From a virus: a DNA stretch of 64,000 nucleotides. The notes under the pieces were generated by a model. That model saw only the letters and a program-made list of their open reading frames with translations, was not told the origin of the DNA and did no database searches. The translations under genes and the position numbers were made by a program. Where the stretch lies: positions 10,398-74,397 of the IMG/VR virus record IMGVR_UViG_3300006802_000089. One strand, 5' to 3'. Positions 3,315 through 64,000 of the stretch are shown in pieces. Position 1 is the stretch's first letter. Each line of letters starts with the position of its first letter.

Positions 3315-3869
3315 TTATTGATTTAGATTTCTAACTCTTTCTGCAATTGTTTTTAATTTGTTTGACATTTCTGTTAAAGCTTTAACCGCTGATTTATTAA
3401 AAGCTTCTCGTGTCATACCACTTTCAGATTTTAATCTGGTTGCATTATGAACAGCTTCTTCTATTTCACGTAATTTTTTATAAGCTTCTTTAATCGTACG
3501 ATTCACTTTTGCTTCAGCCGACATTTTAGGATTTTCGGTAACATATTGTCCATATCCTTCGATAAGACGCTCATAACGTTTTTCCATTGCTTCAGCAACC
3601 TCATTTTTCTTTAAGAAATACTTTCCTGTTACTGGAGCTACGCCAGCAGATGTAGACATTTCATCTACTTTTTCATGATATCCGTTTCCGTCACACTGTT
3701 CACAACCTTTGCCTTCACATTCGGTGCATTGTTCTGCATTTTCTAAGGCATTAACCATTGGCTCTTCTTTATTTCCATCTCCATCAAAATCTAAATAATC
3801 AGGTTTTGCTTTTTCTGTTAATGGTACACGTTCAAATTTTCTTTTCATTTCCGTAATCAATTGTTTCAT
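3315..3869 (-). CDS. Hypothetical protein with an EF-hand-like loop and CxxCxGxG repeats
   Basis: DYLDFDGDGNKEE; CTECEGKGCEQCDGNG. Confidence 0.6.
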   Translation of the reverse strand: MKQLITEMKRKFERVPLTEKAKPDYLDFDGDGNKEEPMVNALENAEQCTECEGKGCEQCDGNGYHEKVDEMSTSAGVAPVTGKYFLKKNEVAEAMEKRYERLIEGYGQYVTENPKMSAEAKVNRTIKEAYKKLREIEEAVHNATRLKSESGMTREAFNKSAVKALTEMSNKLKTIAERVRNLNQ

Positions 3870-4758: not shown

Positions 4759-6597
4759 TTATAAAATATTGTTTTCATCTAGCAATGTTCCGCTATCTTC
4801 ATCTTTTTTTGCTGACTCATACAGCATTTGATTTGCTAAACTTTTATTTTTCTTGTTTATTTTTTTCAATACATCAATATTTTCACGTCGCATATTATAT
4901 GGAGAACTTGTGCTAGCTCGGCGACTGCCTCTTGGATCTGGTTGGAATGTTGTTCGTTGATTTTCCGGATCCATGTGTTGTTTGATTTGTTTGATACCCA
5001 GCGGATCCCATCCGAATGCATTCTTGTGTTGTCCAGATTTAATTCCTTCCGGCGGACGACCTCCTGGATCATCACTATCTGTACCCATATGCATTGAAGC
5101 TAAATCATGAGGTGTTCCGTATGAAACTCCTGTTACCGTAGGATCATTTCCTTCTTGTTCAATTTGACTTTGACGGAATCTCAGTTTAAGATCTTCTATT
5201 ACATCGTTCCTTTCTTGCAACCATTGTTCTTCAGACATATTGAATATGTATTCGTATATGAATCTGTCTGAAACTAGTTTAGAATCTTTCATTGCGCCTG
5301 CTAACTGAATTTTTTCATTCATGAGTGCAATTTTTTGTTGATCATAAATAATAGACGGAGCTGTTAATTCTAAATCAAAATTAACTAGATCTGCATCTTC
5401 ATATCCTTGAGTATATAAATGAACTATTGCTATTTTTGCAAGTTCTGATTCTATAATTTTTTGAATACGCTCAATAGTACGTGCAAAACGTATATCCATT
5501 GATGCTAATGTGGATTTTCCTTCTACTCCTTCATCAAATCCTAAAAATGGTTTAGGTATTTTAAGAGCAGCCATCATTTTGTTTTTAACATATTCGATGT
5601 CATCTATACCGGTAAATTCCATTCCCGGCAGTGAAGATATCTCAGTAGATGAATTTCCTCCTCGCACGGGTAAAAAATAATCTTCCAACATGTTGTTCAA
5701 GTTGAACTTCAAATTGTAATTACCTGTTCTTTGATCTACATATGGAACTTTTTTCATTTTGTTGATCATTTGTTCCATGAATGCATCAACTTCGTTAGGT
5801 GGTATATTACCTATATCTACTTTGAATATTCTTTTTTCTGGAGCTCTCATTACACGATGAATAAGCATTGCATCTTCAAGCATTGTTAATTTTTGAAATT
5901 CTTGTCGTGCTCCTTCTAACATGGATCGGCCGTAAGGTAAGAAGTTAGAATCTGAAATTAATCTGAAATGTGCTATTTCAAACACATCATATTTTTCTTC
6001 TGGGTTAGAAACATGATGAAACTCTATTTCATAATCTCCAATATCTTCACGATATTCTTCCCAACGTTCCATTTCATAACTAGAAAATGGTCTAGCATTG
6101 ATAATACCTACTTCATCTGAAATATCTAGTTTTAAAAAGAAATCTCCGTATTTACACATATTTCGAATCCAAGGCCACAAGTTGAATTCTATGTTTAATA
6201 CGTCATAAAACAGGTTGTTTAATATTTTTTGTATTCTGACATCTTCGGTTTTAATTGTTAAGATATCTCCGAACTGATTGGCTAATGTAGATTCATCGGC
6301 ATATATGTCTAATGCAGAACTGATAATAGGATCTTTATCCATCATTTCAAAATCAGTGTATAACTGCATTCTGTTTTGGTGCATATAATAATTTGAATCA
6401 TATCCACCCATACCTCCGACAGCATGACGATTAGTTCCATGCATTCTGGTGTATCTGTCGGCTATTTTGCTTCCTACTAAATTTCCGGATGATTGTAATC
6501 TGTTTGTGTCGACTACACGTAGTTTGTCTTTACCATACGCTCTTACGATAACGTTGGTACGAAACAGATTTCGTAATCTTCTTCTTAATGATGCCAT
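4759..6597 (-). CDS. gp20: Portal protein (T4 gp20-like)
   Basis: LEDAMLIHRVMRAPEKRIFKVDIGN, LEDYFLPVRGG, TEISSLPG, ALKIPK motifs. Confidence 0.95.
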   Translation of the reverse strand: MASLRRRLRNLFRTNVIVRAYGKDKLRVVDTNRLQSSGNLVGSKIADRYTRMHGTNRHAVGGMGGYDSNYYMHQNRMQLYTDFEMMDKDPIISSALDIYADESTLANQFGDILTIKTEDVRIQKILNNLFYDVLNIEFNLWPWIRNMCKYGDFFLKLDISDEVGIINARPFSSYEMERWEEYREDIGDYEIEFHHVSNPEEKYDVFEIAHFRLISDSNFLPYGRSMLEGARQEFQKLTMLEDAMLIHRVMRAPEKRIFKVDIGNIPPNEVDAFMEQMINKMKKVPYVDQRTGNYNLKFNLNNMLEDYFLPVRGGNSSTEISSLPGMEFTGIDDIEYVKNKMMAALKIPKPFLGFDEGVEGKSTLASMDIRFARTIERIQKIIESELAKIAIVHLYTQGYEDADLVNFDLELTAPSIIYDQQKIALMNEKIQLAGAMKDSKLVSDRFIYEYIFNMSEEQWLQERNDVIEDLKLRFRQSQIEQEGNDPTVTGVSYGTPHDLASMHMGTDSDDPGGRPPEGIKSGQHKNAFGWDPLGIKQIKQHMDPENQRTTFQPDPRGSRRASTSSPYNMRRENIDVLKKINKKNKSLANQMLYESAKKDEDSGTLLDENNIL

Positions 6598-9586: not shown

Positions 9587-10527
9587 TTACGCCATATCTT
9601 CTGCAGAGCTTGGATCTACATTTATTTGTTTATTGCTAAACAATCCGTTATTCTGCATCCATATGATAATATCTCTTCTCATATCAGTCTTACTAACTTC
9701 TTCACCAGTTTTAGCTTCAATTTGTTGTATTGTATTTTTTAAAATATTTAACATTACAGCTGTTGCTTTTTCTTCTGGTTGTGGTTGATTAATTAATCGA
9801 CTGATTAATAACTCTTGGAATTGTGCAACAGGTCCTTTTTCTGCTTGTAATTGAGCATCAGGATCTCCTGCTTCACCGGTTTCAGTGCCATCTAGTGTTG
9901 GTGCATCTGCTGGAGCTTCTGGAGTTGGTGCATCTGCTGGTGTTGGTGTTTCTGGTGTTGTTGCGGCTGCGGGTGCTTCTGGAGCTGCAGTTGGTTCGGG
10001 AATCGGCTCTGGTGCAGGTTCTGCTGCTACTGGCTCTTCTTCTGTTTCTTCTGCTTGTTCTCGAATCATGATTGCAATTTTTCTGCGAACATATTCTCTG
10101 ATTAATCGTTCTTTATTTGATTCAGACAAACGATTTACTCGCTCTTGCAATTTTTCTTCATTTTCTGGCTTTACCATGCTATTAGTAATTGCGCCATGAT
10201 CGATTCGTTCTAATTTTTCCAAGAATCCGTCAGTATCTTCAATCTGAAGTTTGTCAAACAATTTTCTTGCATGCTCTGCAGAATATTCTCCTTCTTCTAT
10301 TTTTTTGTATAAACGATCTTTGATTTCTGGTACCATGTTTTCTATGTTGTCAATGACATTAGTAGCATATTTTCTAGGTACATTTGGTTGAACGCCTTTT
10401 ACACCACCAGGAACCATGTTAGGGGCATCTTCTGCTGTGTAATCCTTCATGTCTTTGCGTGTTTCTGCTTTCAGTGACTTTGCCATGTCTTTTGATGCTT
10501 TGTAGTTGCTCTTATGTTTTCAGCCAT
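9587..10527 (-). CDS. Hypothetical protein with Pro/Ala-rich linker; true start probably 10527 (1-nt deletion in an A-run)
   Basis: Late motif at about 10546 precedes ATG 10527; adding one A gives MAEKHKSNYKASKD-MAKSL in frame. Confidence 0.6.
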
Positions 10528-34849: not shown

Positions 34850-35302
34850 TTATTCTATATTAACTACACCACTTTCATCAGCCGTTACAGTTACCGTGTC
34901 TGTTTTCAAAGATCCGTTAATTCCAAACGTAATTGATATTTTAACGTTATGTGGTAAATTCGGATCATCTTCTGCAGTTACAATATCAAATTGTTGTATT
35001 TCGATATAAGGTAGCCAAAACGAAATTTCATCTGTTATTAATGTTTCAATTTCTTGTTTTAAATCAGATACATTTGGTTCAAATACTAAATTTAATAATA
35101 ATGTACCAAAATTCACATTATGTAGTCGTTCGCCTTTTCTAGTTAATAATAAATTTTTTAAATTATCACGGGCTTGATCAATTGATAAGTAATTCAAATC
35201 AAATACACCAGGATTATTAAAAATTAATTTAACTCCTAATGCAATTTCTGAAACAACTGAATTTTCAGATTCTTGTTGATTTGATATTATCTGATATGCC
35301 AT
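34850..35302 (-). CDS. gp25: Baseplate wedge protein gp25
   Basis: NLKNLLLTRKGER...FGT...FEP...WLPYI. Confidence 0.9.
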   Translation of the reverse strand: MAYQIISNQQESENSVVSEIALGVKLIFNNPGVFDLNYLSIDQARDNLKNLLLTRKGERLHNVNFGTLLLNLVFEPNVSDLKQEIETLITDEISFWLPYIEIQQFDIVTAEDDPNLPHNVKISITFGINGSLKTDTVTVTADESGVVNIE

Positions 35303-35802
35303 TATTTACCTTTTTTCTTGTCTATTGCTTTCATCAGCGCTGAATAATCTCTGGTGATAGCTTTTGCAACTGCAGGATCTACTTGCATGTTTTTACCAGT
35401 TTCTGGATCCTGCATAACAGCTGGTGCTGCCATGTTAGATTGCATTCCCATTTTTCTGGCCGCGCCGAAATTCATTGCATCTGCAGAAGTCATTGTGATA
35501 TCTTCTGTCATTAATTCTGCATAAGAATTCATTGTTAATGGTGTTTCTTCACGAAGTGAATCGGTATCGTTTAGAATGCTAGAAAATTTATTTTCTTTAA
35601 AATTTACTTTGCGTTTAGGTTTTGTTGGTTTCGGAATAACCGGATTAGACAGTTGTTTATTACTAATAACATCCGTTTTCATTTCATTGATAGTTGATTG
35701 TAACCCTTCTTGTAGTATTTCAGACAGTTCTTCTTTAATTACTTTACGAACTTCTTCGGCTACTACTTGTTTTAAAACTGAAATTAATTTTGATTGACTC
35801 AT
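35302..35802 (-). CDS. Hypothetical protein
   Basis: ORF with late motif upstream; C-terminal RDYSALMKA. Confidence 0.6.
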   Translation of the reverse strand: MSQSKLISVLKQVVAEEVRKVIKEELSEILQEGLQSTINEMKTDVISNKQLSNPVIPKPTKPKRKVNFKENKFSSILNDTDSLREETPLTMNSYAELMTEDITMTSADAMNFGAARKMGMQSNMAAPAVMQDPETGKNMQVDPAVAKAITRDYSALMKAIDKKKGK

Positions 35803-35847
35803 AATTACTTTTTTTATATATAAATATTAATATGTACGATTTATAGG

Positions 35848-36690
35848 TTAAGTCCAAGAGCCATTAGTTGGCTTAGGTCCGAATAATTGATTTGTTTGGG
35901 TATCTATGTAAAAGTCACCTGCTGTTCCAATTGTATTTAATGGAGATCCTTGTCCGGTTAAAACATTGGTAGGTAGTTCTACCAAATTGTTAATAACATC
36001 AAATCCTCCATCTATTAATTCTACTATTTCTTGATACCTAGCATCTAAATCTTCGTCAGACACATTTAGTTCCGTGTAGAATGTGCTTGGAAATTGTTCT
36101 AATAATTCTTCTGCAGTTGGAGGCGTTACTAATGTTACATCAATAGTATCATTTCCTGATAAATTGTTTAAGAAATCATTAACACGATCTGCAGATTCAT
36201 TGCATAAATTATTTAGGAATTGTTGTGCTTGTGCAGCAGATGTTAAAATTGTAGGAAACAATGCTAATAAACGATCGAATATACTAAGCAATATATTAGC
36301 AACCGTTAATGAATTTTGAGCTAATTGTGCGTTAGATTCTCCGGCACTTTGAGCGGCTCCATTAGTAGGAGTTACTAGAGTTGCTGCTAATGCAGCGGCT
36401 TGTCCAACTCTTGCTAATATTTTTAAAACATTCACTACCGTAGATAAAACTGCAATTAAATCATTTATCTTTTCCAAAAAATTTAATAACGCTTCCAGTT
36501 TATTACGTAATTCTCGTACGTCTGCATCGTCGCAAGATACATTGGTAGGGATATTTTCTAACAGATTAGGAATTTGAATTGCTCCTAATTGTTGTAAAGT
36601 TCCGATATACTTGTTAAGTAACGGAAGCAAACGTTCAGCAATTAAAACCGGAGGCGCAGCAATTTGATTGATAGGAAATGGAGATGCCAT
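35848..36690 (-). CDS. Helical virion-associated protein
   Basis: C-terminal GDFYID...LFGPK...W motif typical of tail/collagen-associated proteins. Confidence 0.5.
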   Translation of the reverse strand: MASPFPINQIAAPPVLIAERLLPLLNKYIGTLQQLGAIQIPNLLENIPTNVSCDDADVRELRNKLEALLNFLEKINDLIAVLSTVVNVLKILARVGQAAALAATLVTPTNGAAQSAGESNAQLAQNSLTVANILLSIFDRLLALFPTILTSAAQAQQFLNNLCNESADRVNDFLNNLSGNDTIDVTLVTPPTAEELLEQFPSTFYTELNVSDEDLDARYQEIVELIDGGFDVINNLVELPTNVLTGQGSPLNTIGTAGDFYIDTQTNQLFGPKPTNGSWT

Positions 36691-36692
36691 AA

Positions 36693-37691
36693 TTATTCAG
36701 TTCGTTTATCTTGTTGAATCTTAGGATTAAGAATGTTATTTAATTTACCAGAAGCTTCTAGTAAACTAATCTGATCTACTGCAGATGTTATAAGTGTGTT
36801 ATCTGCAGATTTAAATCCAGATGTTAATACATTTAATATATTATTTAATACATCATGTAATTCTGTAGAATATATTCCATCTTCCTTGTTTATATCAGTA
36901 CCAAATACTACTTTGGCTGTGTTTAACTCAATGTTATTAGGTGCATTAATCGTTACACTATCAGTTTTTGCGTTTAAATTGATTCGGTCTGCAACGCCTA
37001 TAAATTGTGATTGATACCCGTTTTCTTGTTTTAATGATTTAGTAACGGTATATCCGGATATTTCTTGCGTGCTAGTTAAATATATTGAAGAATAATCTGA
37101 GTTTGGATTTTCTGTAATAAACTGACTGTTAGTATTGTTTTTAGTATTTGAAATTATTATTATAGGATCTCCGTCAGATCCATTTTTATTTCTCCAACCC
37201 GGTTGTTTCGAAAAAGTTGTATCCTGTGTTTTCAATGTGCTGCCAAATCGAATTCGATTACCCCATCTTCCTTGAATTATTCGATCACCGGGATATGGCT
37301 GTAATGTTGATATACTTTTTTCTGATATCCGTTTTTGCCAAGCTGTTGATAGTTCTTTGCCTACCGAATTATTTGTTTTATATGTAACTCCTGGTAATAA
37401 ATTATTATTAACAGTTGTTTGTATTGAATATGTAGTTAAAAAATACCAATCATATCTTCTTGTGCTAGTATTAGATTCTTGTCTAAGTCCTTTGAATATT
37501 AAAACATGTTCTCCGGGTATTGGTATTACTAAATCGTGTATATTTGCTGGACGGACATTTTCATACACTCTAACATTAACATCGGATATAGTTCTAACAG
37601 TAATTCTCAATTCATCTGATTCATTATTATTAGAATCATTAAAAGCATTACTAGTGTTTAAAACTTCAGCAATTTTTAATTTAGTTATCAT
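36693..37691 (-). CDS. Baseplate hub/spike (gp5/VgrG-like) protein
   Basis: PIPGEHVLI (OB-fold-like), PGDRIIQGRWGNRIRFGS, beta-repeat C-terminus; context next to gp25/gp6. Confidence 0.55.
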   Translation of the reverse strand: MITKLKIAEVLNTSNAFNDSNNNESDELRITVRTISDVNVRVYENVRPANIHDLVIPIPGEHVLIFKGLRQESNTSTRRYDWYFLTTYSIQTTVNNNLLPGVTYKTNNSVGKELSTAWQKRISEKSISTLQPYPGDRIIQGRWGNRIRFGSTLKTQDTTFSKQPGWRNKNGSDGDPIIIISNTKNNTNSQFITENPNSDYSSIYLTSTQEISGYTVTKSLKQENGYQSQFIGVADRINLNAKTDSVTINAPNNIELNTAKVVFGTDINKEDGIYSTELHDVLNNILNVLTSGFKSADNTLITSAVDQISLLEASGKLNNILNPKIQQDKRTE

Positions 37692-38124
37692 CTGACTTAG
37701 ATACCTTGTTTTTAACTTGATCTACTCGCGATTGCATATTACGCTCTTCGTCATCAATACGTTTTATTTCTTCTATTTCATCTTCTAATTCCGTAACATA
37801 GTTTTGTTCAGCAATAGCTAAAAGTTGTTTCTTTTCTTCATCACTCATTAATCCGTCTGCACCAGAAATAGTTTGTTTGGTAGAAATATAACGCTGCGTA
37901 ATTGCCGCTAATTTAATCAGATGATCATCGTTCTTAACAGATATATCCAGATATTCTTTGATAAGTGGAACAATGATAGTAGCATCAGATGCATTCTTGA
38001 TTAAAGGTTGCAACTGTGCTATCATTTGGCTGATTTGCCGATCTTTCTTTTTGGAATTATGGTATATGTCGGACATCAAGTCCGAGAAAGAAGTATCCTT
38101 GAATAGTTTGTCATCTTTATCCAT
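37681..38124 (-). CDS. Helical hypothetical protein
   Basis: ORF with late motif upstream. Confidence 0.6.
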   Translation of the reverse strand: MDKDDKLFKDTSFSDLMSDIYHNSKKKDRQISQMIAQLQPLIKNASDATIIVPLIKEYLDISVKNDDHLIKLAAITQRYISTKQTISGADGLMSDEEKKQLLAIAEQNYVTELEDEIEEIKRIDDEERNMQSRVDQVKNKVSKSDDN

Positions 38125-38145
38125 AACGCTTTTTAATAATAAATA

Positions 38146-38856
38146 TCAAAAAGGCAATTTCATGAACTCTGATTGTTGATACTCTTCGAATTTGTCTTCA
38201 TATAATCGTTTGATGGTTTTCATTACTCTGGTAATGTAGGTGGTTTGTGCTGGTTCTAGTTTAGCACGTTCCCGTATCAATATGTATAAAGACTTTTTGT
38301 TGTATTCTTCTATATTTTCACGATTTTCAAAAAAGTGTAAAACTGAATCTGCTACATGAATATCTAATGACGAACTAAATATATAATTCAAATTGCGATA
38401 ACAATAATCTACAAATTCGTCCATAAACACTCGCAAATTGTCTTGCATTTCATCATTATCAATTTCAGTCATGACGTTTCGTTGTTCATCTAAATCGAAT
38501 TCTTCTGCTTTTTGTTTTATTTTTTTATATGCTTTTGAATTCTCTGCAATCAGATAGTTCCATGATGTTCTGGTGTAATAAGAATAAGCTTTACCAGATT
38601 CCGGATTGAATTTATCTAAACGAGCAGTTAAATACGTAACTAAATCTGTTTGCAAATCAGAAAACGTAGAATCGATATAGTCAGGTTTCATTTTGTTAAT
38701 TAAATTTTCCGCAAGTTTCATGAATGCAGGAAATATGAATCTGCGATATACTCGTTCTTTAAGAACTGGTCTTTCTTCTAGTTGATTGTATGCTACGATT
38801 GCTGCCTGTGTGATGGATGTAAAATAATTATTACTTTTCTTCCTCTTGCGTCCCAT
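38146..38856 (-). CDS. Late-transcription sigma factor (T4 gp55-like)
   Basis: NYFT...KLAENLI...LDKFNPESGKAYSYYT, resembling the sigma region 2 of gp55 (FDP.K..AF.YFT). Confidence 0.65.
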   Translation of the reverse strand: MGRKRKKSNNYFTSITQAAIVAYNQLEERPVLKERVYRRFIFPAFMKLAENLINKMKPDYIDSTFSDLQTDLVTYLTARLDKFNPESGKAYSYYTRTSWNYLIAENSKAYKKIKQKAEEFDLDEQRNVMTEIDNDEMQDNLRVFMDEFVDYCYRNLNYIFSSSLDIHVADSVLHFFENRENIEEYNKKSLYILIRERAKLEPAQTTYITRVMKTIKRLYEDKFEEYQQSEFMKLPF

Positions 38857-56173: not shown

Positions 56174-56418
56174 AGCTGTGATGGTTTAATATAAATATGG
56201 GCGATAACACGTACGTGAGGAATGTATATACGCGCGTATATCTAATAAAGAGCACCTATATAGCAAAAATCTTACCCGTGCTAGAAAAATTGATATAACC
56301 ACCCTATATCTCCACCTATATACGGGGGTGTTAATGAAACCCTCCCCACCCCCCTATTTGACCCCCTCCTCCCCCCTTGTTCGCACCCTATACGCGACCC
56401 CCTCCCCCGAACTGTTCG

Positions 56419-56463: not shown

Positions 56464-56616
56464 TTAACACATTTCTACTTGTGATGGTATTAAAACTAAT
56501 GGAATAAAATCATCTAAATAAGGAATGTGTATTGTAATAAACCCATCTTCATTTTTAACGACGTCGTGTATTGTTCCTTTAAGGCCGAATGCATTTGTTT
56601 TTAATTTCACTTTCAT
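56464..56616 (-). CDS. Cassette ORF (50 aa)
   Basis: MKVKLKTNAFG... directly behind a promoter repeat. Confidence 0.6.
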   Translation of the reverse strand: MKVKLKTNAFGLKGTIHDVVKNEDGFITIHIPYLDDFIPLVLIPSQVEMC

Positions 56617-56691
56617 ATCTCTTTGTTTTTAATTATACTTAAATATAAGCAAAATAATGTTAGGATCCTAGTCTTTTCTTAACTTTTTTTA

Positions 56692-56820
56692 TTAAAAGAA
56701 ATAAGTCCAAACCGGCGCATCCGGATGCTTAAGAGACCACACATGATAGTCCCAATAAACCGATCCGACGGCGATTAACGTTAATCCTAATACAATTGCT
56801 ACGACTTTTAACTTTTTCAT
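56692..56820 (-). CDS. Cassette ORF, small TM peptide (42 aa)
   Basis: MKKLKVVAIVLGLTLIAVG... Confidence 0.55.
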   Translation of the reverse strand: MKKLKVVAIVLGLTLIAVGSVYWDYHVWSLKHPDAPVWTYFF

Positions 56821-56825
56821 ATCTC

Positions 56826-57029
56826 TTATTTTAAGATATTATCGTTTAAATGCTTAATTGCATTTTCTATTTCTTCTTTTGCCACATAATCAAACACACC
56901 AAATTTTAAACCAGTTTCCTCAAAAATTAATTTAACATAATTATGTGCTTCATCATAACTATAACCCTGATTAAATACGTGCCTTTTGCATTCATTAATT
57001 TTTTCACCTAATTTTAAAAATAACTTCAT
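56826..57029 (-). CDS. Cassette ORF
   Basis: ORF track; repeat upstream. Confidence 0.65.
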   Translation of the reverse strand: MKLFLKLGEKINECKRHVFNQGYSYDEAHNYVKLIFEETGLKFGVFDYVAKEEIENAIKHLNDNILK

Positions 57030-57092
57030 GTCTCTATCTTTTTAATTATACTTAAATATAAGAATAATATTGCATAAGTCCTAATCTTTTCT

Positions 57093-57359
57093 TTACTTTT
57101 TTCTTTGACCTAATCTACGTGTACCATGCTCAACGGTAACTGCTGTAAACGAAACTTCATTCTCAAAGTTATACTTATCAAATCTAATAAAACCTTCTTG
57201 TGTCATTCTTTCAACGGTATTTCCTGACAGGATCATGTTAAACATAGCCTCATCAACTACCATCTCATCTCCTACTCGATACTGTACAGCTTGGCTTTCA
57301 TATCCAGCTGATTCGAGTATTTCCTTCTTAACGATCAATTTAAATTCTTTGTGTGTCAT
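57093..57359 (-). CDS. Cassette ORF
   Basis: ORF track; repeat upstream. Confidence 0.65.
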   Translation of the reverse strand: MTHKEFKLIVKKEILESAGYESQAVQYRVGDEMVVDEAMFNMILSGNTVERMTQEGFIRFDKYNFENEVSFTAVTVEHGTRRLGQRKK

Positions 57360-57529
57360 ATCTCTTATTTTTTAATTATACTTAAATATAAGAATAATTT
57401 TGTTAGGATCCTAATCTTTTTTAAACTTTTTTATCAGATATTATCCGATAAAACATAACCACTACTGCTATCATGTACAGTGTCATTACTCCTAATCCTA
57501 TTGCTGCGTTCATCATATCCGTTTTTTGT

Positions 57530-57730
57530 TTAAGGCTGATCCGTGTATGTCGGATCGCAAATCTCCCACATTAAATTTATAACCTTGTCGTATACTCCAT
57601 TCGCTCTGAGTATTTCATCGAATTCGGGGCGGAACATGTAAGCCCAATTATAATACCTTCTAGCCGCTAACACATAATTTTTTTCTGCTATGTCTGCAGC
57701 GAAATCTCTAATTGCAAAATGGTTTATCAT
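57530..57730 (-). CDS. Cassette ORF (start MINHF)
   Basis: ATG directly after the repeat leader; the longer track ORF runs through the promoter. Confidence 0.65.
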   Translation of the reverse strand: MINHFAIRDFAADIAEKNYVLAARRYYNWAYMFRPEFDEILRANGVYDKVINLMWEICDPTYTDQP

Positions 57731-57814
57731 ATCTCTATCTTTTTTAATTATACTTAAATATAAGTAAAAAAAGTGCGCGAACCAAATTATCCACACACTT
57801 TTTTCAAACTTTTT

Positions 57815-58108
57815 TTACTCGTCCCAATTTTCAATACTGTAATCCTCACTTACTAAATCGAGTATTTCGTCATATATTTCAAACCCCTCATATTGCGCAG
57901 TCAAGCCAATTTCCTCTAAATCGTCTTCATCCTCCAAATTTAAATTTTTGCCATCTACTACAACATTAATACGTGTGAAGCCGTCATCCGTCCATAAATT
58001 CCATTCATACTCCGTGTCATTAATAACAATAGTGCCTTCAACTTCTCTACAAAGCTTTTCGTCTAAATCAACCCAACCGTCTAAAATTTCAATTTTTTCT
58101 ACTTTCAT
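57815..58108 (-). CDS. Cassette ORF, acidic TDDG paralog family
   Basis: MKVEKIEILDG...WTDDGFT...YDEIL. Confidence 0.7.
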   Translation of the reverse strand: MKVEKIEILDGWVDLDEKLCREVEGTIVINDTEYEWNLWTDDGFTRINVVVDGKNLNLEDEDDLEEIGLTAQYEGFEIYDEILDLVSEDYSIENWDE

Positions 58109-58191
58109 TTTTCTCTCTTTTTTAATTATACTTAAATATAAGCAAAAAAAGTGTACAAACCAAATTATTTGCACACTTTTTTCAAACTTTT

Positions 58192-58500
58192 TTACAACTT
58201 AAATATTTGCGTAAAATGCCAACCGTCACCATTAACCTCACTCACATAACTTAAAAATTCTCTATTTGAGGGATCGGTTCCATTTTCCTCTACATACTCA
58301 TCTTGCCATTCCTCATAATTATACATTTCTTTAAGAAATGCAAATACACTTTCACCATTACCTTTAAATACCTCAACACCACTACTATAACATCTTTCGT
58401 CTTCTTCAAACACGACAAAATAATTAAGTCCTGGAATTAAGTCCATAATGTCAATACTAATTGCTTCTTCTAACCGAGCTACATTTTTTTCTTTTGCCAT
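58192..58500 (-). CDS. Cassette ORF, acidic
   Basis: ORF track; repeat upstream. Confidence 0.65.
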   Translation of the reverse strand: MAKEKNVARLEEAISIDIMDLIPGLNYFVVFEEDERCYSSGVEVFKGNGESVFAFLKEMYNYEEWQDEYVEENGTDPSNREFLSYVSEVNGDGWHFTQIFKL

Positions 58501-58575
58501 TTTTCTATCTTTTTAAATTATAATTAAATATAAGAATTATTTTTCAATTAAACAACCTTTTTGTTAACTTTTTTT

Positions 58576-58698
58576 TTAAATTATTGTGCAGGATCCAAAT
58601 CCATATACAATACTACATACAATAACGGCTGCGGCACTTACTACTACTAATGCGCATGCGATACTAAATTCTGCGTTTTCTACAATTACTTTTTTCAT
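58576..58698 (-). CDS. Cassette ORF, small TM peptide (40 aa)
   Basis: MKKVIVENAEFSIACALVVVSAAVIV... Confidence 0.5.
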   Translation of the reverse strand: MKKVIVENAEFSIACALVVVSAAAVIVCSIVYGFGSCTII

Positions 58699-58780
58699 TT
58701 TTCTCTCTTTTTTAAATTATTAACTTATATTAATATAACCTCGTTTTTGTGAAAAGATAACCCTTTTTCAGCAACTTTTT

Positions 58781-59035
58781 TTAAACTTTTTTACTCAGGA
58801 AATCCCACCTCCCCACACCGTCTTCAACACAAACCTCAGCCTTGTCATATAAAACACCAACAAGCGTGTCAATTAAGTCACGTGTATCCGCATGATAAAT
58901 AGTTCCACAACCCGCGCCTCCAAATTGATACTCGGCAATTAATTCTCCATTCACAAATATTTGCGCAATGTCGTCAAACTCCTGCATTTCAATTTTACTC
59001 GCATAATTGTCTAACTCAAATGTGTACTTTGTCAT
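58781..59035 (-). CDS. Cassette ORF
   Basis: ORF track; repeat upstream. Confidence 0.65.
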   Translation of the reverse strand: MTKYTFELDNYASKIEMQEFDDIAQIFVNGELIAEYQFGGAGCGTIYHADTRDLIDTLVGVLYDKAEVCVEDGVGRWDFLSKKV

Positions 59036-59119
59036 ATCTCTCTTTTTTAAATTAATACTTAAATATAAGCAAAATAATGTTAGGATCCTAATTTTTTAGC
59101 ATCTTTTTTTAAACTTTTT

Positions 59120-59311
59120 TTACTCAAACTCCCACAGCTTTTTAGTGATAATGTTAACTCGAGTCTGCACTGCACTTATCAAATGCCTTTTAGCATCATT
59201 AGTCGGATCCGCTTTGTGGTCCCTTTTCCTGCGCTCCAGTCTTGCCTTTTGCACCACTAACTCCGACTCCAAGTCTCTTTTCTGTTTTGCCTTTAGTTGT
59301 ACGTGATTCAT
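59120..59311 (-). CDS. Cassette ORF, basic coiled coil (start MNHVQ)
   Basis: ATG overlaps the TGA of the upstream TM ORF. Confidence 0.55.
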   Translation of the reverse strand: MNHVQLKAKQKRDLESELVVQKARLERRKRDHKADPTNDAKRHLISAVQTRVNIITKKLWEFE

Positions 59312-59466
59312 CTTGCTGCTGCTATTACTATTATTGCTACTAATCCTGCACACATTAACAACCCTACCGGCTCCGTTAAGCATGCTATTACTGCTGGCAC
59401 AAATATTGTGAAGAATATTAGTGTCATTATAATCCAACCTATAAAATTTAAAGTGTATCTGCTCAT
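59308..59466 (-). CDS. Small 2-TM protein (52 aa)
   Basis: MSRYTLNFIGWIIMTLIFFTIF... Confidence 0.55.
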   Translation of the reverse strand: MSRYTLNFIGWIIMTLIFFTIFVPAVIACLTEPVGLLMCAGLVAIIVIAAAR

Positions 59467-59467
59467 G

Positions 59468-59626
59468 TTACTTCTTTTTAAATAAAATCCAAACTAATGC
59501 TACTACTGCGGCAATTGCTCCTAGTGTTCCTCCAAAATATGCCGCTATCTTAATTATAAAAGGACCTAATAAAGCAATTATCAATAATGCTATTAAAAAA
59601 CTAAATACGCTTGCTACTTTTTTCAT
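59468..59626 (-). CDS. Small 2-TM protein (52 aa)
   Basis: MKKVASVFSFLIALLII...WILFKKK. Confidence 0.6.
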   Translation of the reverse strand: MKKVASVFSFLIALLIIALLGPFIIKIAAYFGGTLGAIAAVVALVWILFKKK

Positions 59627-59710
59627 CTCTCTATCTTTTTTAATTATACTTAAATATAAGCATTTTTTTTCACTCTGCCAAATCTTTTAGCAACTTTTTT
59701 TCAACTTTTT

Positions 59711-59989
59711 TTAGTTCAAGTTAATTCCGTCAATTCCTTTAAGCAAATCGTTTACTGCGTCGCCTGCCTTTTTGCTGTTGTCAATATTGTGTAACACTAA
59801 TTGAGTTACAGCGCGGGACAATTCTCCTTCGTCGCCTTTCTCATACATATGCAACATTCCTGCCAACATTAAGCCTAATCTTATAATGCGAGTATCCTCA
59901 CATCCTGCATTCATTGCCTGTGCTGTCAAATCCTCAATTTCAGCTACCATTCCCAATAACATTTGTAATAACTCTGCGTCTCTTCTCAT
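59711..59989 (-). CDS. Cassette ORF
   Basis: ORF track; repeat upstream. Confidence 0.65.
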   Translation of the reverse strand: MRRDAELLQMLLGMVAEIEDLTAQAMNAGCEDTRIIRLGLMLAGMLHMYEKGDEGELSRAVTQLVLHNIDNSKKAGDAVNDLLKGIDGINLN

Positions 59990-60061
59990 TTTCTATCTTT
60001 TTAAATTATACTTAAATATAAGCATTTTTCTGTTCGGATCCTAATCTTTTTGAAACTTTTT

Positions 60062-60802
60062 TTAAACGTATTGCAACAAACTTTCGGATCCTGCTACACC
60101 GCGTAACGCCTTTTCTGCTGCGCGGACTAGTTGTCTCGCCCTTTCCCCAGTTACCTCTAATTTTTCAGCAATTGCCTCCATACATAGCGGATACTCCTGT
60201 CCTATGCCGTAAAACAAAACTAATGCCTCTGCCTGCTTAGCGTTAATCTGTTCCAGCAATCGTGCTAACTCGTTTTGGAATTGTTGTCTTTCGAAATCGC
60301 CTTTCACTTCCTCAGCCTGCAAATATCTGCTTCCAAACGTATCTGAGTTTTCCTCATCATTAATTTGCACATCCGTGCTAACCTCACCATACTCCTCACT
60401 GCGTGTTTTGTGGGATGGGATCCGCACTGTGCGAGAAAAATCATTTAACGCTTTCTGTATCTCTGCGCGGATATACCAAACTGCAAAACTAATAAATTTA
60501 ATATTGCGGCTAGGATCGAAACGCGTTGCTGCCTCAAATAAGCCTATATTACCAAAGCCAATTAAATCCTCCATTGCGATACCCATTCCCTGATAGCTTC
60601 GTGCTACTTGTGCTACAAACCTCAAATTAGCTGCCACTAATTCATTTAGTGCCTGTCTGTCGCCTGCCTGGATACGTTCTGCTAGTTTTCGCTCCTTTTC
60701 TTTGTCAATCATTTTAACACGCTTAATGTCCCGCATATATGCTTTTGTGCTATCAGCCGTGCTATTAATTGCTCCTTTCGTAACAAATATATTCTTTCCC
60801 AT
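60062..60802 (-). CDS. RpoD/SigA-family sigma-70 factor
   Basis: LVAANLRFV..VARSYQG, DLIGFGNIGL..AA.RFDP, KFISFAVWYIR, SRTVRIP, region 4 TGERARQ. Confidence 0.93.
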   Translation of the reverse strand: MGKNIFVTKGAINSTADSTKAYMRDIKRVKMIDKEKERKLAERIQAGDRQALNELVAANLRFVAQVARSYQGMGIAMEDLIGFGNIGLFEAATRFDPSRNIKFISFAVWYIRAEIQKALNDFSRTVRIPSHKTRSEEYGEVSTDVQINDEENSDTFGSRYLQAEEVKGDFERQQFQNELARLLEQINAKQAEALVLFYGIGQEYPLCMEAIAEKLEVTGERARQLVRAAEKALRGVAGSESLLQYV

Positions 60803-60839
60803 AACTACTTTCCGTTTATTAAAAAATTAAATGAATATC

Positions 60840-60995
60840 TTACCTTTCTGTTTTCTCCTTTCTGTTCTTCTTGCCTAACGCAATTGCCTGGTGTACTGCG
60901 TCTGTCGTGCTTGCCGGCTTCTTTGCCGTTGCTAATGCGTTGCCTATTAGTCCTGTTTGCGCATAAAATCCTGAGTTTCTTTTTCCTTTTGCCAT
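60840..60995 (-). CDS. Small basic cassette ORF (51 aa)
   Basis: MAKGKRNSGFYAQ... Confidence 0.55.
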   Translation of the reverse strand: MAKGKRNSGFYAQTGLIGNALATAKKPASTTDAVHQAIALGKKNRKEKTER

Positions 60996-61020
60996 TTTCT
61001 ATCTTTTTAAATTATACTTA

Positions 61021-61049
61021 AATATAAGCAAAAAAAGTGCGCGTGTCAA
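61021..61049 (-). promoter_or_regulatory. Near-consensus sigma70-type promoter within a cassette repeat
   Basis: TTGACA-N17-TATATT; a second such copy lies near 63155-63183. Confidence 0.8.
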
Positions 61050-61078
61050 CCTTTTTGCACACTTTTTTTCAACTTTTT

Positions 61079-61297
61079 TTAAAATTCCAAAAAACAATCT
61101 AAATCAGGATCCTCCTCCAATATTGCGGCAATAAGTTGTGGCAATAATTGTTTATCAATTCCATCCACATAGGCACCATAATCGTCTGTCTCCAATTCAA
61201 ATTTGTGCTTTACATTGTCAACCTCTACAGTGCCTTTTATGCGGATACAGCTATCCTCATTAAACGTGTATTGTTTCTCAATAACTAAATTTTCCAT
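61079..61297 (-). CDS. Cassette ORF, TDDG paralog family
   Basis: GTVEVDNV...FELETDDYG. Confidence 0.65.
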   Translation of the reverse strand: MENLVIEKQYTFNEDSCIRIKGTVEVDNVKHKFELETDDYGAYVDGIDKQLLPQLIAAILEEDPDLDCFLEF

Positions 61298-61382
61298 TTT
61301 CTCTCTTTTTTAAATTAATAATTAAATATAAGCATTTTTTTTCACTCTGCCAAATCTTTTAGCAACTTTTTTTAAACTTTTT

Positions 61383-61610
61383 TTAATAGCTATATATTAT
61401 CTCGTCATATATCTCATAGCCATCCTCAATACCAATTTCCTCTAAATCATCATCATCTTCCAAATTGTATCTGTTATCGCCGTCTATCAAATATATACTT
61501 GTCATACCGTCATCTGTCTTCAAGTCAAAATTGTATTCAACACCGTCAATACTAACTACTCCATTTCCATTTCTTCTCCTGCCTTCTAATTTTAAAATTT
61601 CAATTTTCAT
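61383..61610 (-). CDS. Cassette ORF, TDDG paralog family
   Basis: GVVSIDGVEY.F.LKTDDGMT...YDEI. Confidence 0.7.
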   Translation of the reverse strand: MKIEILKLEGRRRNGNGVVSIDGVEYNFDLKTDDGMTSIYLIDGDNRYNLEDDDDLEEIGIEDGYEIYDEIIYSY

Positions 61611-61690
61611 TTTCTCTCTTTTTTAAATTTATTACTTATATTAATATAACCTTATTTTTGCGAAAAGATAACCCTTTTTGTTAACTTTTT

Positions 61691-61909
61691 TTAAACATTT
61701 ATTACTGAGTTTTCATTAAACTCTCTCACGTCAAAATCATAACTGTCATCCAAATCGGATATTTCCACTCCGCAATCAACATAATCTTCTATCAATATTT
61801 CGCGTACTACTTTTTCGGCAACTTCTGTATTTTCCGCCTTAACAAAATACAAATCGGTAGCGTGCATTCTGTCTACGTCATTAACCATTACTGCAAATAA
61901 TTTTTTCAT
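61691..61909 (-). CDS. Cassette ORF
   Basis: ORF track; repeat upstream. Confidence 0.65.
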   Translation of the reverse strand: MKKLFAVMVNDVDRMHATDLYFVKAENTEVAEKVVREILIEDYVDCGVEISDLDDSYDFDVREFNENSVINV

Positions 61910-61993
61910 TTTTCTATCTTTTTAAATTAATACTTAAATATAAGCAATTTTTTTCACTCTGCCAAATCTTTTAGCAACTTTTTTTAAACTTTT

Positions 61994-62299
61994 TTAATCT
62001 TCTTCACCTAATTCAAATCCATTCTCACACACAAAAGTCAATATCTCGTCATATATCTTCTCTCCATCCTCTTCACTAATGTCATACATATCCAAATCCT
62101 CGTCACACTCTAAACTAGCCGGAACCCAATGCCTGTTATCCCAAACTTCATTTTCTTCTTTTTTAATCCAAATGCCCGTCATGCCGTCATCTGTCTCCAA
62201 TTCAAATTTGTATTCAACTCCGTCAATACTAACTACGCCATTTACTTCTCTTTGTCTGCCGTCTACCCAGCCATCCAATTCTAAAATTTCAATTTTCAT
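61994..62299 (-). CDS. Cassette ORF, TDDG paralog family
   Basis: GVVSIDGVEYKFELETDDGMT...YDEIL. Confidence 0.7.
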   Translation of the reverse strand: MKIEILELDGWVDGRQREVNGVVSIDGVEYKFELETDDGMTGIWIKKEENEVWDNRHWVPASLECDEDLDMYDISEEDGEKIYDEILTFVCENGFELGEED

Positions 62300-62377
62300 T
62301 TTCTCTCTTTTTAAATTAATACTTAAATATAATGATTATTTTGTTCGGATCCTAATCTTTTTGTAACTTTTTTTAAA

Positions 62378-62677
62378 TTATTTTTCTAATTCAACACAAT
62401 CAAAATATATATCCTCCGCCAACATTATGCCAAAATCTTTTCCATTTTCACCATCACAAATTAAATCTAACAAAAACTCATCGTCTACTTGTCTATCCCA
62501 ATTATCACTACTCTCTATCCACTCCACTAAATTTTTGTCATCATAACAACGTGTATAAAAACGTCTTCTTATTTTTTTAACTAAGTCTAACTTATCTTCC
62601 GCAAACATTTTAACTCTGTCTAAAACCTCTTCGACTCCTCTAAATGCATAACCCATTTCTACTAAATACAATTTCAT
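62378..62677 (-). CDS. Cassette ORF
   Basis: ORF track; repeat upstream. Confidence 0.65.
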   Translation of the reverse strand: MKLYLVEMGYAFRGVEEVLDRVKMFAEDKLDLVKKIRRRFYTRCYDDKNLVEWIESSDNWDRQVDDEFLLDLICDGENGKDFGIMLAEDIYFDCVELEK

Positions 62678-62743
62678 TTTCTCTCTTTTTAAATTAATAA
62701 TACTTAAATATAAGCATTTTATTTCAATTAAACAACCTTTTTG

Positions 62744-62893
62744 TTAACTTTTTTTACTAGTTAATTTAATAAACGTGGATCCATCATATCCGGATCCGGC
62801 CCATTTCATTCTGTCCTCAAATGATAACATGTTTGCTAAAGACTCCAATTGCTCGATTGACATTTTGTCGATTTGTTTTGCCGTGTAATTCAT
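62744..62893 (-). CDS. Cassette ORF (49 aa)
   Basis: MNYTAKQIDKMSIEQL... Confidence 0.55.
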   Translation of the reverse strand: MNYTAKQIDKMSIEQLESLANMLSFEDRMKWAGSGYDGSTFIKLTSKKS

Positions 62894-62973
62894 TTTTCTC
62901 TCTTTTTAAATTTATTACTTATATTAATATAACCTCATTTTTACAAAAAGATAACCCTTTTCTGTAACTTTTT

Positions 62974-63129
62974 TTAAAATTGTATCAAATCAATTGCCCG
63001 CTCGCCTGTACCTTTGCCATTGCGGGTAATCTCATAATTCGGATCCATCCCGGAGGAAACAACGTCGTCTAGCAACTCTGTTAACGTGTTAAACTTTTTC
63101 TGATAATACTTGCAATCTAAACTATACAT
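62974..63129 (-). CDS. Cassette ORF (51 aa)
   Basis: MYSLDCKYYQKKF...SGMDPNYEIT. Confidence 0.6.
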   Translation of the reverse strand: MYSLDCKYYQKKFNTLTELLDDVVSSGMDPNYEITRNGKGTGERAIDLIQF

Positions 63130-63214
63130 ATCTCTATTTTTAAATTAATACTTAAATATAAGCAAAAAATCAATGCGTGTCAACCTTTTTCCGAAAAAAG
63201 TTTCAAAAAAGTTT

Positions 63215-63314
63215 ACAGTAAGAAAGGAGCCAGGGGAGATAGAGAGAAACCTGACTCCTTGCGATCCGACATATTGACGGTTGCGTTTTCCGCTTGTGTA
63301 CTAATATGTGGATC
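63215..63314 (-). ncRNA. Candidate two-hairpin small RNA / structured 3'UTR with a loop antisense to the cassette leaders
   Basis: Stem 1 GAUCCACAUAUU/AAUAUGUCGGAUC; stem 2 AAGGAGUCAGG/CCUGGCUCCUU with loop UUUCUCUCUAUCUCC, followed by a U-rich tail. Confidence 0.55.
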
Positions 63315-63550
63315 TAATCTTCTTCTTCAACAGTTATATATTCAACATCCGTATCGATATCCTCTAATATGTTAATTGCATCCGTCAAATAATCTATCAT
63401 GTTACTAACGATCCCGTCCAGATCACTAGCCCTTTTGCAATGCTTTATTTCATAGATGTCATGACCTATCTCTTCAATCATTCTGACTGCATCCATCAAC
63501 TCAGGAACGCAGTCCCATCCATCTTCCGTTGTTTTAATTTGTTCCGACAT
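63314..63550 (-). CDS. Hypothetical acidic protein
   Basis: ORF track. Confidence 0.65.
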   Translation of the reverse strand: MSEQIKTTEDGWDCVPELMDAVRMIEEIGHDIYEIKHCKRASDLDGIVSNMIDYLTDAINILEDIDTDVEYITVEEED

Positions 63551-63553
63551 ACT

Positions 63554-63703
63554 CTATTTTTTAAATTCTTTACGTATTAACTCTTGTGCTTTTTTATATT
63601 CTTCTTCAGTAACATCGCCAAAAATTCTCATTGCTTCTAATACCGATCGAGCTGCTTCTGCTTCTGGTGCCTCTTCGATCATTTGTTTAATCTTCTTTCT
63701 CAT
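63554..63703 (-). CDS. Small hypothetical protein (49 aa)
   Basis: MRKKIKQMIEEAPEAEAARS...; degenerate promoter repeat upstream. Confidence 0.55.
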   Translation of the reverse strand: MRKKIKQMIEEAPEAEAARSVLEAMRIFGDVTEEEYKKAQELIRKEFKK

Positions 63704-63739
63704 TCTTTCTATTTATACTTTAAATATAAGAATAATATT

Positions 63740-63876
63740 TCTAAAAAACAAATCTAAATCTAAAAATATTTTTCTAAATATTGCTCTAAAAATAGCCTGG
63801 TATCGATCTAAAAATAGGCTCGACACTGATCTAAAAATAGTCTTCTAAAAATAGTCTGATATTGGTCTAAAAATAA
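63740..63876. repeat. Iteron-like direct repeats TCTAAAAATA(G)
   Basis: Copies at 63759, 63785, 63807, 63830, 63844 and 63866, plus degenerate ones. Confidence 0.8.
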
Positions 63877-63903: not shown

Positions 63904-63936
63904 GCTAAAGCCGGATCCGTTAAGATCCGACTTTGC
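63904..63936 (-). terminator. Hairpin after an upstream ORF that enters from beyond the window
   Basis: Minus strand GCAAAGTCGGATC-TTAACG-GATCCGGCTTTAGC. Confidence 0.5.
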
Positions 63937-64000
63937 TATTTGAGAGATATGTTTACGAAACGATAATTTGCTCTGCTACCATTGCCTCCGGGTCTTCAAA

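Follow-up and report, generated by a model that had tools for sequence, protein, structure and literature searches.

A conserved hairpin with an anti-leader loop at the head of an early gene array in T4-like phages

Control of many genes through their translation start regions has been described for both RNAs and proteins. The c4 antisense RNA of phages P1 and P7 (Rfam RF01695) is a phage-encoded, structured RNA made from the same operon region as its targets. Its exposed segments pair with the ribosome-binding region and block translation. It is an immunity RNA of temperate phages with two defined target sites on one mRNA. The multi-target sRNAs RNAIII and RsaE of S. aureus and LhrC of Listeria are host-encoded. 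They carry C/U-rich seeds in hairpin loops, often repeated in two or more loops, that pair with the ribosome-binding region of many mRNAs at G-rich Shine-Dalgarno sequences. In T4 the collective post-transcriptional shut-off of early genes through their translation start regions is the work of two proteins, the translational repressor RegA and the endoribonuclease RegB (review PMC3014915). Conserved hairpin loops can also be recognized by proteins, as in lambda nut/boxB, where the 5-nt loop is bound by the N protein. An intrinsic terminator has a GC-rich stem, a short loop of 3-8 nt and a run of U.

Here we consider a hairpin from an uncultured phage that resembles each of these systems in part. 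The window analysed is 64,000 nucleotides of IMG/VR record IMGVR_UViG_3300006802_000089 (positions 10,398 to 74,397), and is the last 64 kb of a 74.4-kb contig. Joining the contig ends does not give a continuous ORF, so the contig is a fragment. Most genes are on the minus strand. The terminase is T4-like, with Flavobacterium phage immuto among its closest cultured relatives (55% aa; a Microcystis phage record scored 59%). There is no Shine-Dalgarno (SD) sequence before the genes. The early promoters fit both TTGACA-N17-TATATT and the Bacteroidota -7 element TAHHTTT (PMC6847099), and the host is probably of this phylum. No close DNA relative was found in the GenBank phage collection.

The minus strand is read here from the contig end. 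The end of an ORF is followed by the motif CAUAUCUCUC (63942-63951, -), which lies directly after a stop codon, and by a hairpin with the core CGGAUC UUAA CGGAUCCG (63904-63936, -). Six iteron-like repeats of CTATTTTTAGA come next (63740-63876). They are followed by a promoter-like element, TTATATTTAAAGTA (63716-63729, -), a cassette-type -7 element with one extra A. This promoter precedes a two-gene operon of a 49-aa ORF (63554-63703, -) and a 78-aa ORF (63314-63550, -). The 49-aa protein has no relatives in IMG/VR. The 78-aa gene occurs at 88% DNA identity in two other phage contigs with unrelated flanks, so it behaves as a mobile small gene. Its closest homologues (86% aa) lack the hairpin, which means the gene and the hairpin are not a fixed pair. 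Two hairpins close the operon (63314-63263 and 63260-63224, -), and then the cassette array begins (56600-63163, -). The array holds 19-20 cassettes, each with its own promoter, a purine leader (AAAAAGAGAGAAAAUG, AAAAAGAUAGAAAAUG, AAAGAUAGAGAGAUG and others) and a small ORF. The promoter of the first cassette is at 63155-63183 (-) (TTGACA, 17 nt, TATATT; it also fits TAHHTTT) and its start codon is at 63129. The 51-aa product of this cassette (62974-63129, -) has no match in the GenBank phage collection, but it is conserved (59-84% aa) in 31 IMG/VR contigs, including contigs of 200-290 kb, and is often the first gene after the hairpin element. One cassette encodes a sigma factor (60062-60802). 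A second promoter-like motif, ATATTTATATAT, lies 10-15 nt before the start codons of late genes, upstream of structural genes (e.g. 10559, 22764, 32962), and may be read by this sigma factor. G-run tracts on the sense strand (GGGGGGAGGAGGGGG...) mark the downstream end of the array, both here and in G001, a relative with the array (56340-56382 in the window; 5960-6070 in locus L079).

An earlier note, made from the sequence alone, had described two hairpins on the minus strand just before the array, and had claimed that the loop of the second is complementary to the shared leader of about 18 cassette mRNAs. That observation is confirmed. RNAfold of 63320-63200 (-) gives hairpin 1 (63314-63263), which starts at the stop codon of the 78-aa ORF and has no pyrimidine loop, and hairpin 2 (63260-63224). 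Hairpin 1 is conserved, with one internal-loop change, in two close metagenomic relatives. Hairpin 2 has the stem AAGGAGUCAGG/CCUGGCUCCUU, which is 11 bp with one U.G pair that would be A.C on the plus strand, and an unpaired 15-nt loop UUUCUCUCUAUCUCC (63249-63235). The MFE is -33.6 kcal/mol with z = -3.77, and 0 of 200 shuffles fold as well. Some details of the earlier note must be corrected. The array has 19-20 cassettes rather than about 18, and the U-rich tail is weak (UCUUACUGUAAACUUUUUUG; 63215-63223, -, UCUUACUGU). With a 15-nt loop the site was not listed by a consensus terminator scan.

The complement of the loop, GGAGAUAGAGAGAAA, matches cassette leaders over 7-11 nt. We compared it with the 21 start regions listed for this end of the window, which are 20 cassettes and the first operon. 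The longest Watson-Crick matches are 11 nt (start 59626), 9 nt (ten of them), 7 nt (six), 6 nt (three) and 5 nt (one). Pyrimidine-rich 15-mers are very rare on this strand, with 9 clusters in 74 kb. It had been proposed beforehand that the idea would fail if shuffled pyrimidine loops matched the leaders equally well, and they do not: composition-preserving shuffles of the loop reach the observed mean match in only 0.6-0.7% of trials (p about 0.007). Duplex energies against 102 crude gene starts of the contig put cassettes in the top 9 places and in 14 of the top 16, at -12 to -16.8 kcal/mol against a median of -3.3. However, both partners are low-complexity, (CU)n against (GA)n, and nearly mirror-symmetric. 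A physically meaningless parallel reading matches almost as well, which makes a complement-not-reversed control uninformative, and part of the signal is compositional.

The hairpin is not a one-off. We looked upstream of homologues of the first cassette gene and found two tandem hairpins at the same position in L115, a 140-kb contig. Their stems differ, but both carry the loop UUUCUCUCUCUUAUUU. Surveys of array-bearing loci found many more, and so did a survey of loci collected only by their iteron repeats, which is blind to the loop sequence. In total there are 19 distinct stems with 180 base pairs, 23 of them G.U, and no mismatch. All present loops of the form (U)UUCUCUCU(CU)UAUYU or close variants (UUUAC, UUACU, CUCUU, and the window's UAUCUCC). 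MAFFT alignments of all the hairpins slide along the CU repeat and are not structure-consistent, so a gapless subset of five sequences was used instead. In this alignment 6 of 9 stem pairs show compensatory double changes. The covariation score is 0.689 against 0.285 in shuffles (0 of 500 reach it), and it falls to about 0.2 or below when the 3' partners are slid. A covariance model built from those five sequences (R1), without the window, finds exactly one hit in the 64 kb on both strands. This hit is the flagged hairpin (63258-63226, -; 22.9 bits, E 0.0029). The model finds 22 further hits in related loci. Rfam scans of the window region and of 11 related loci found only tRNAs, and none of the families searched, c4 included, gave a relevant hit.

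The window's hairpin has the features of this family. It is a sense-strand hairpin closed by GG/CC, its loop falls within 13-17 nt and begins (U)UUCUCUCU, and it lies downstream of the iterons and small ORFs and immediately upstream of the first promoter cassette. It is not part of a tandem pair of CU-loop hairpins, but such pairs are common rather than universal, since single-hairpin relatives also exist (loci L058, L236 and L302). The window's single hairpin is a divergent member of the twin-hairpin family. The context is conserved as well. Repeats of CTATTTTTAGA (2-15 copies) come first, then a promoter, then one or two tiny hydrophobic ORFs (in this window the 49-aa and 78-aa ORFs instead), and then a structured non-coding stretch that ends in one or two CU-loop hairpins, the last usually followed by a clean U-run. 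The cassettes follow. The repeat is conserved in sequence across diverged phages (for example loci L247, L240 and L178) and always lies a few hundred bases upstream of the CU-loop hairpins. It is a candidate operator of the promoter that makes the RNA, or a candidate replication origin. In several lineages the non-coding stretch is about 190-300 nt with further conserved hairpins. In nine loci (L235, L214, L236, L164, L058, L115, L120, L232 and L178) it contains further conserved modules, for example CGACGGGGUCCGGGA...CCCGGCGGAUCG and GGGAUCACGACCACAGGAUGC...CUCCGAACAC, and this structured RNA has no Rfam match. The window has a reduced form with one plain hairpin and one CU-loop hairpin. Locus L029 has a tRNA-like gene (3340-3415; anticodon loop CUCAUAA) between the iterons and the hairpin.

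Flavobacterium phage immuto has no CU-loop hairpin; its single pattern hit lies in a coding region, and R1 finds nothing in its first 40 kb. G001 starts inside the array and so says nothing about the hairpin. A scan with AACTTTTTTKAAACTTTT gave mostly random hits. An exact match to both stem arms in locus L096 is an unrelated terminator with a different loop, about what chance would give. A metagenome scan for the exact loop gave two near-identical relatives and four chance hits.

Does the loop have anything to do with the leaders in the relatives? The shuffle test gives p of 0.003-0.047 in four other lineages, so that five of seven are below 0.05, but it is not significant in the remaining two (p 0.12 and 0.16). 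These lineages share ancestry, so the tests are not independent. In L029 the loop has grown to 29 nt (UUUCAUAUCUCUCUCUUAUCAUAUCUCUU) and contains two antisense segments. Three start regions of its own array match it over 12 nt, each across the AUG and the bases after it. This goes beyond a CU-against-GA composition match and fixes the orientation as antiparallel. A second conserved element, the 3'UTR motif UAAACAUAUCUCUCAAYAUAG, follows the stop codons of particular array genes in about 30 contexts, and is itself followed by a hairpin. In L058, L232 and L178 it is part of the same non-coding RNA. The CAUAUCUCUC at 63951-63942 in the window belongs to this motif. It is antisense to GAGAGAUAUG, that is, leader plus start codon, though in the window it can also pair locally with a downstream AGAGGAUG. 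This motif and the hairpin loop are the only two sense-strand sites in the window with an antisense match of 10 nt or more to cassette start regions. Both lie in the 800-nt head region, where 0.013 such sites are expected, against about one in the whole 64 kb, although the region was defined after the fact.

Loop variants tend to follow leader variants. UUAU goes with AUAAGAG: lineages whose loops contain UUAU have arrays dominated by AAAAAUAAGAGAU leaders (40-82% of cassettes), while lineages without UUAU have 0-10%. The window's UAUCU goes with its own AGAUAGA leaders. This covariation is suggestive only. The own loop is the best-matching loop in only 3 of 7 lineages, and the UUAU association has a p of about 0.09 at lineage level. 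A lineage with AAGGUUAUG leaders (G008) could not be used as covariation evidence. The head of its array (locus L313, G008 35000-38185) is about 1.2 kb of non-coding DNA with five copies of ACCTTCC, complementary to GGAAGGU, where about 0.07 are expected, but no fold there is better than shuffles. Anti-leader 5-mers are not specifically purged from the array mRNAs relative to 5-mers of the same composition. The sense strand of the array (56600-63200, -) is very poor in C (10% against 16% elsewhere), and TCT and TCA are its most depleted triplets (O/E 0.27 and 0.35, against 0.84 and 1.01 in late genes). This depletion is strong only in this phage and is much weaker in the arrays of related contigs.

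Closely related sequence occurs in sediment, estuary, freshwater and seawater metagenomes of seven DNA studies. Transcription is supported only by contigs from two metatranscriptome libraries of different studies. One spans 63110-63429. The other spans 63220-63422 and stops 4 nt after the stem of hairpin 2, where a terminated transcript would end. It must be noted that contigs cannot show strand, ends or level and that DNA carry-over is possible, so this is a weak hint only. The parts of the stretch without cover in these contigs, and the read-through contig of one metatranscriptome run (X17), cannot be interpreted.

The earlier note had inferred that one loop-presenting RNA could occlude or coordinate translation initiation of the whole early array, and this interpretation is partly supported. 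The in-silico checks that it proposed mostly come out in its favour. What the analysis establishes is that the structure folds only on the sense strand, that it belongs to a family in which the loop is kept while the stem varies freely, that the family always sits between iterons plus tiny ORFs and the array, and that the loop is antisense to the purine-rich leader just upstream of the start codons of the cassette mRNAs, and in some relatives across them. The rest is inference, including termination, the existence of a stable small RNA, pairing and any effect on translation. We argue that the simplest account of all the features is a terminator or 3'UTR hairpin whose loop is an anti-start seed. 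In this view the hairpin terminates the upstream operon and stays on that transcript, or on a processed 3' fragment, and its exposed CU-rich loop pairs with positions about -3 to -14 of many cassette mRNAs. In Flavobacterium johnsoniae, a Bacteroidota model that lacks SD use, initiation depends on an unstructured A-rich region upstream of the AUG, and structure in the start region tunes it (PMC6847099). A 9-12-nt duplex at this position should therefore matter, and would occlude 30S binding. The result would be a collective damping or timing of early-protein synthesis, or silencing of the same genes of a superinfecting relative. The effect could be repression or protection, and could be exerted in trans or in cis on read-through transcripts. 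The RNA comes from an early-type promoter at the same time as its ~20 proposed targets, so stoichiometry is a problem unless it accumulates. We consider this reading about as likely as not.

One can imagine a scenario where the hairpin is instead recognized by a phage or host RNA-binding protein, working like boxB/N, the T4 gene 43 operator or coat-protein operators, or as a decoy for an RNase. It would then control termination or read-through into the array, or the stability of the transcript, and the complementarity to leaders would be incidental. A conserved loop on covarying stems is what such a hairpin looks like. Its position at the head of the early transcription units, often as a tandem pair with identical loops, fits too, and the depletion of UCU and UCA from the window's array mRNAs could reflect avoidance of a factor that reads such motifs. 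However, this does not explain why the L029 loop and the separate CAUAUCUCUC motif extend the antisense match across the AUG, nor why loop variants tend to follow leader variants. No candidate binding protein was identified, and we regard this scenario as unlikely, though it is the strongest rival. Only slightly less likely is that the hairpin is a plain intrinsic terminator of the operon, with an inherited pyrimidine loop whose match to GA-rich leaders follows from low complexity and shared ancestry. It lies directly after a stop codon and before the next promoter, it has a GC-rich stem and a U-containing tail, the second hairpin of the pair in relatives is followed by a clean U-run, and one RNA-library contig ends just after the stem. 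But loops of 13-29 nt are atypical and costly for terminators. It is the loop and not the stem that is conserved across the 19 stems, hairpins of the family that lack a U-tail carry the same loop, and shuffled loops match the leaders worse.

A DNA-level role is very unlikely. The hairpins could form in single-stranded sense-strand DNA next to the iterons, which lie 300-600 bp upstream in all lineages, and serve replication initiation, priming or packaging, and the window does end here at the contig end. However, 23 G.U (G.T) pairs are tolerated, the position is inside a transcription unit between a stop codon and a promoter, the U-run after the second hairpin in relatives is typical of RNA terminators, and no replication gene is adjacent in the window. 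The alternative raised in the earlier note, a plus-strand decoy that presents AGAUAGAGAGAAA in a loop to titrate a leader-binding repressor, is the least plausible of all. The plus-strand loop would look like a leader, but the G.U pairs become A.C mismatches on that strand, and no promoter or gene is seen on it here.

If the loop really pairs with the leaders, this is a one-to-many RNA switch built into the architecture of a phage early region, in a host phylum that does not use SD pairing and where post-transcriptional control is poorly understood. It would give a compact, sequence-programmable handle on a whole set of host-takeover genes, and an experimentally simple system of one hairpin, one leader and compensatory mutations. 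A bolder reading is possible, but we hold it only tentatively. T4-like phages of SD-less Bacteroidota may carry a widespread, uncatalogued class of anti-start RNAs, made of terminator or 3'UTR hairpins plus the linear CAUAUCUCUC motif, whose exposed pyrimidine sequences pair with the shared leader and AUG of some 10-20 early mRNAs. They would time early-gene shut-off, or exclude superinfecting relatives, under the control of the adjacent iteron-regulated promoter. Whatever the function of the hairpin, the analysis defines a conserved RNA motif, with a covariance model and more than 20 members, that is absent from Rfam. It also defines a conserved head-of-array control region of iterons, tiny ORFs and structured RNA that recurs across many uncultured aquatic phages. 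We found no paper describing this element. The earlier note knew of no phage example of a promoter-cassette array plus a one-to-many antisense switch, but that claim needs tempering, since antisense RNAs that block ribosome binding are known in phages.

The closest mechanistic analogues are the c4 RNA and the multi-target sRNAs with pyrimidine-rich loops, and the closest functional analogues are RegA and RegB. None is a relative by Rfam. Compared with c4, the proposed targets here are ~20 separate mRNAs in a lytic T4-like phage, and there is no sequence or structure similarity. Compared with RNAIII, RsaE and LhrC, the proposed target is an SD-less AGAGA/AUAAGAGA leader of phage early genes, and the element is a 3'UTR/terminator hairpin. 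The proposed role is that of RegA and RegB, but an RNA loop would do the job in place of proteins, as an RNA-only counterpart. Like boxB, the hairpin has a conserved loop on a variable stem at the head of early transcription units, but its loops are 13-29 nt in the family and antisense to the phage's own leaders, and no binding protein is known. Like an intrinsic terminator it has a GC-rich stem after a stop codon followed by U-rich sequence, and it probably does terminate, but the 15-nt conserved loop and the interrupted U-tract are atypical.
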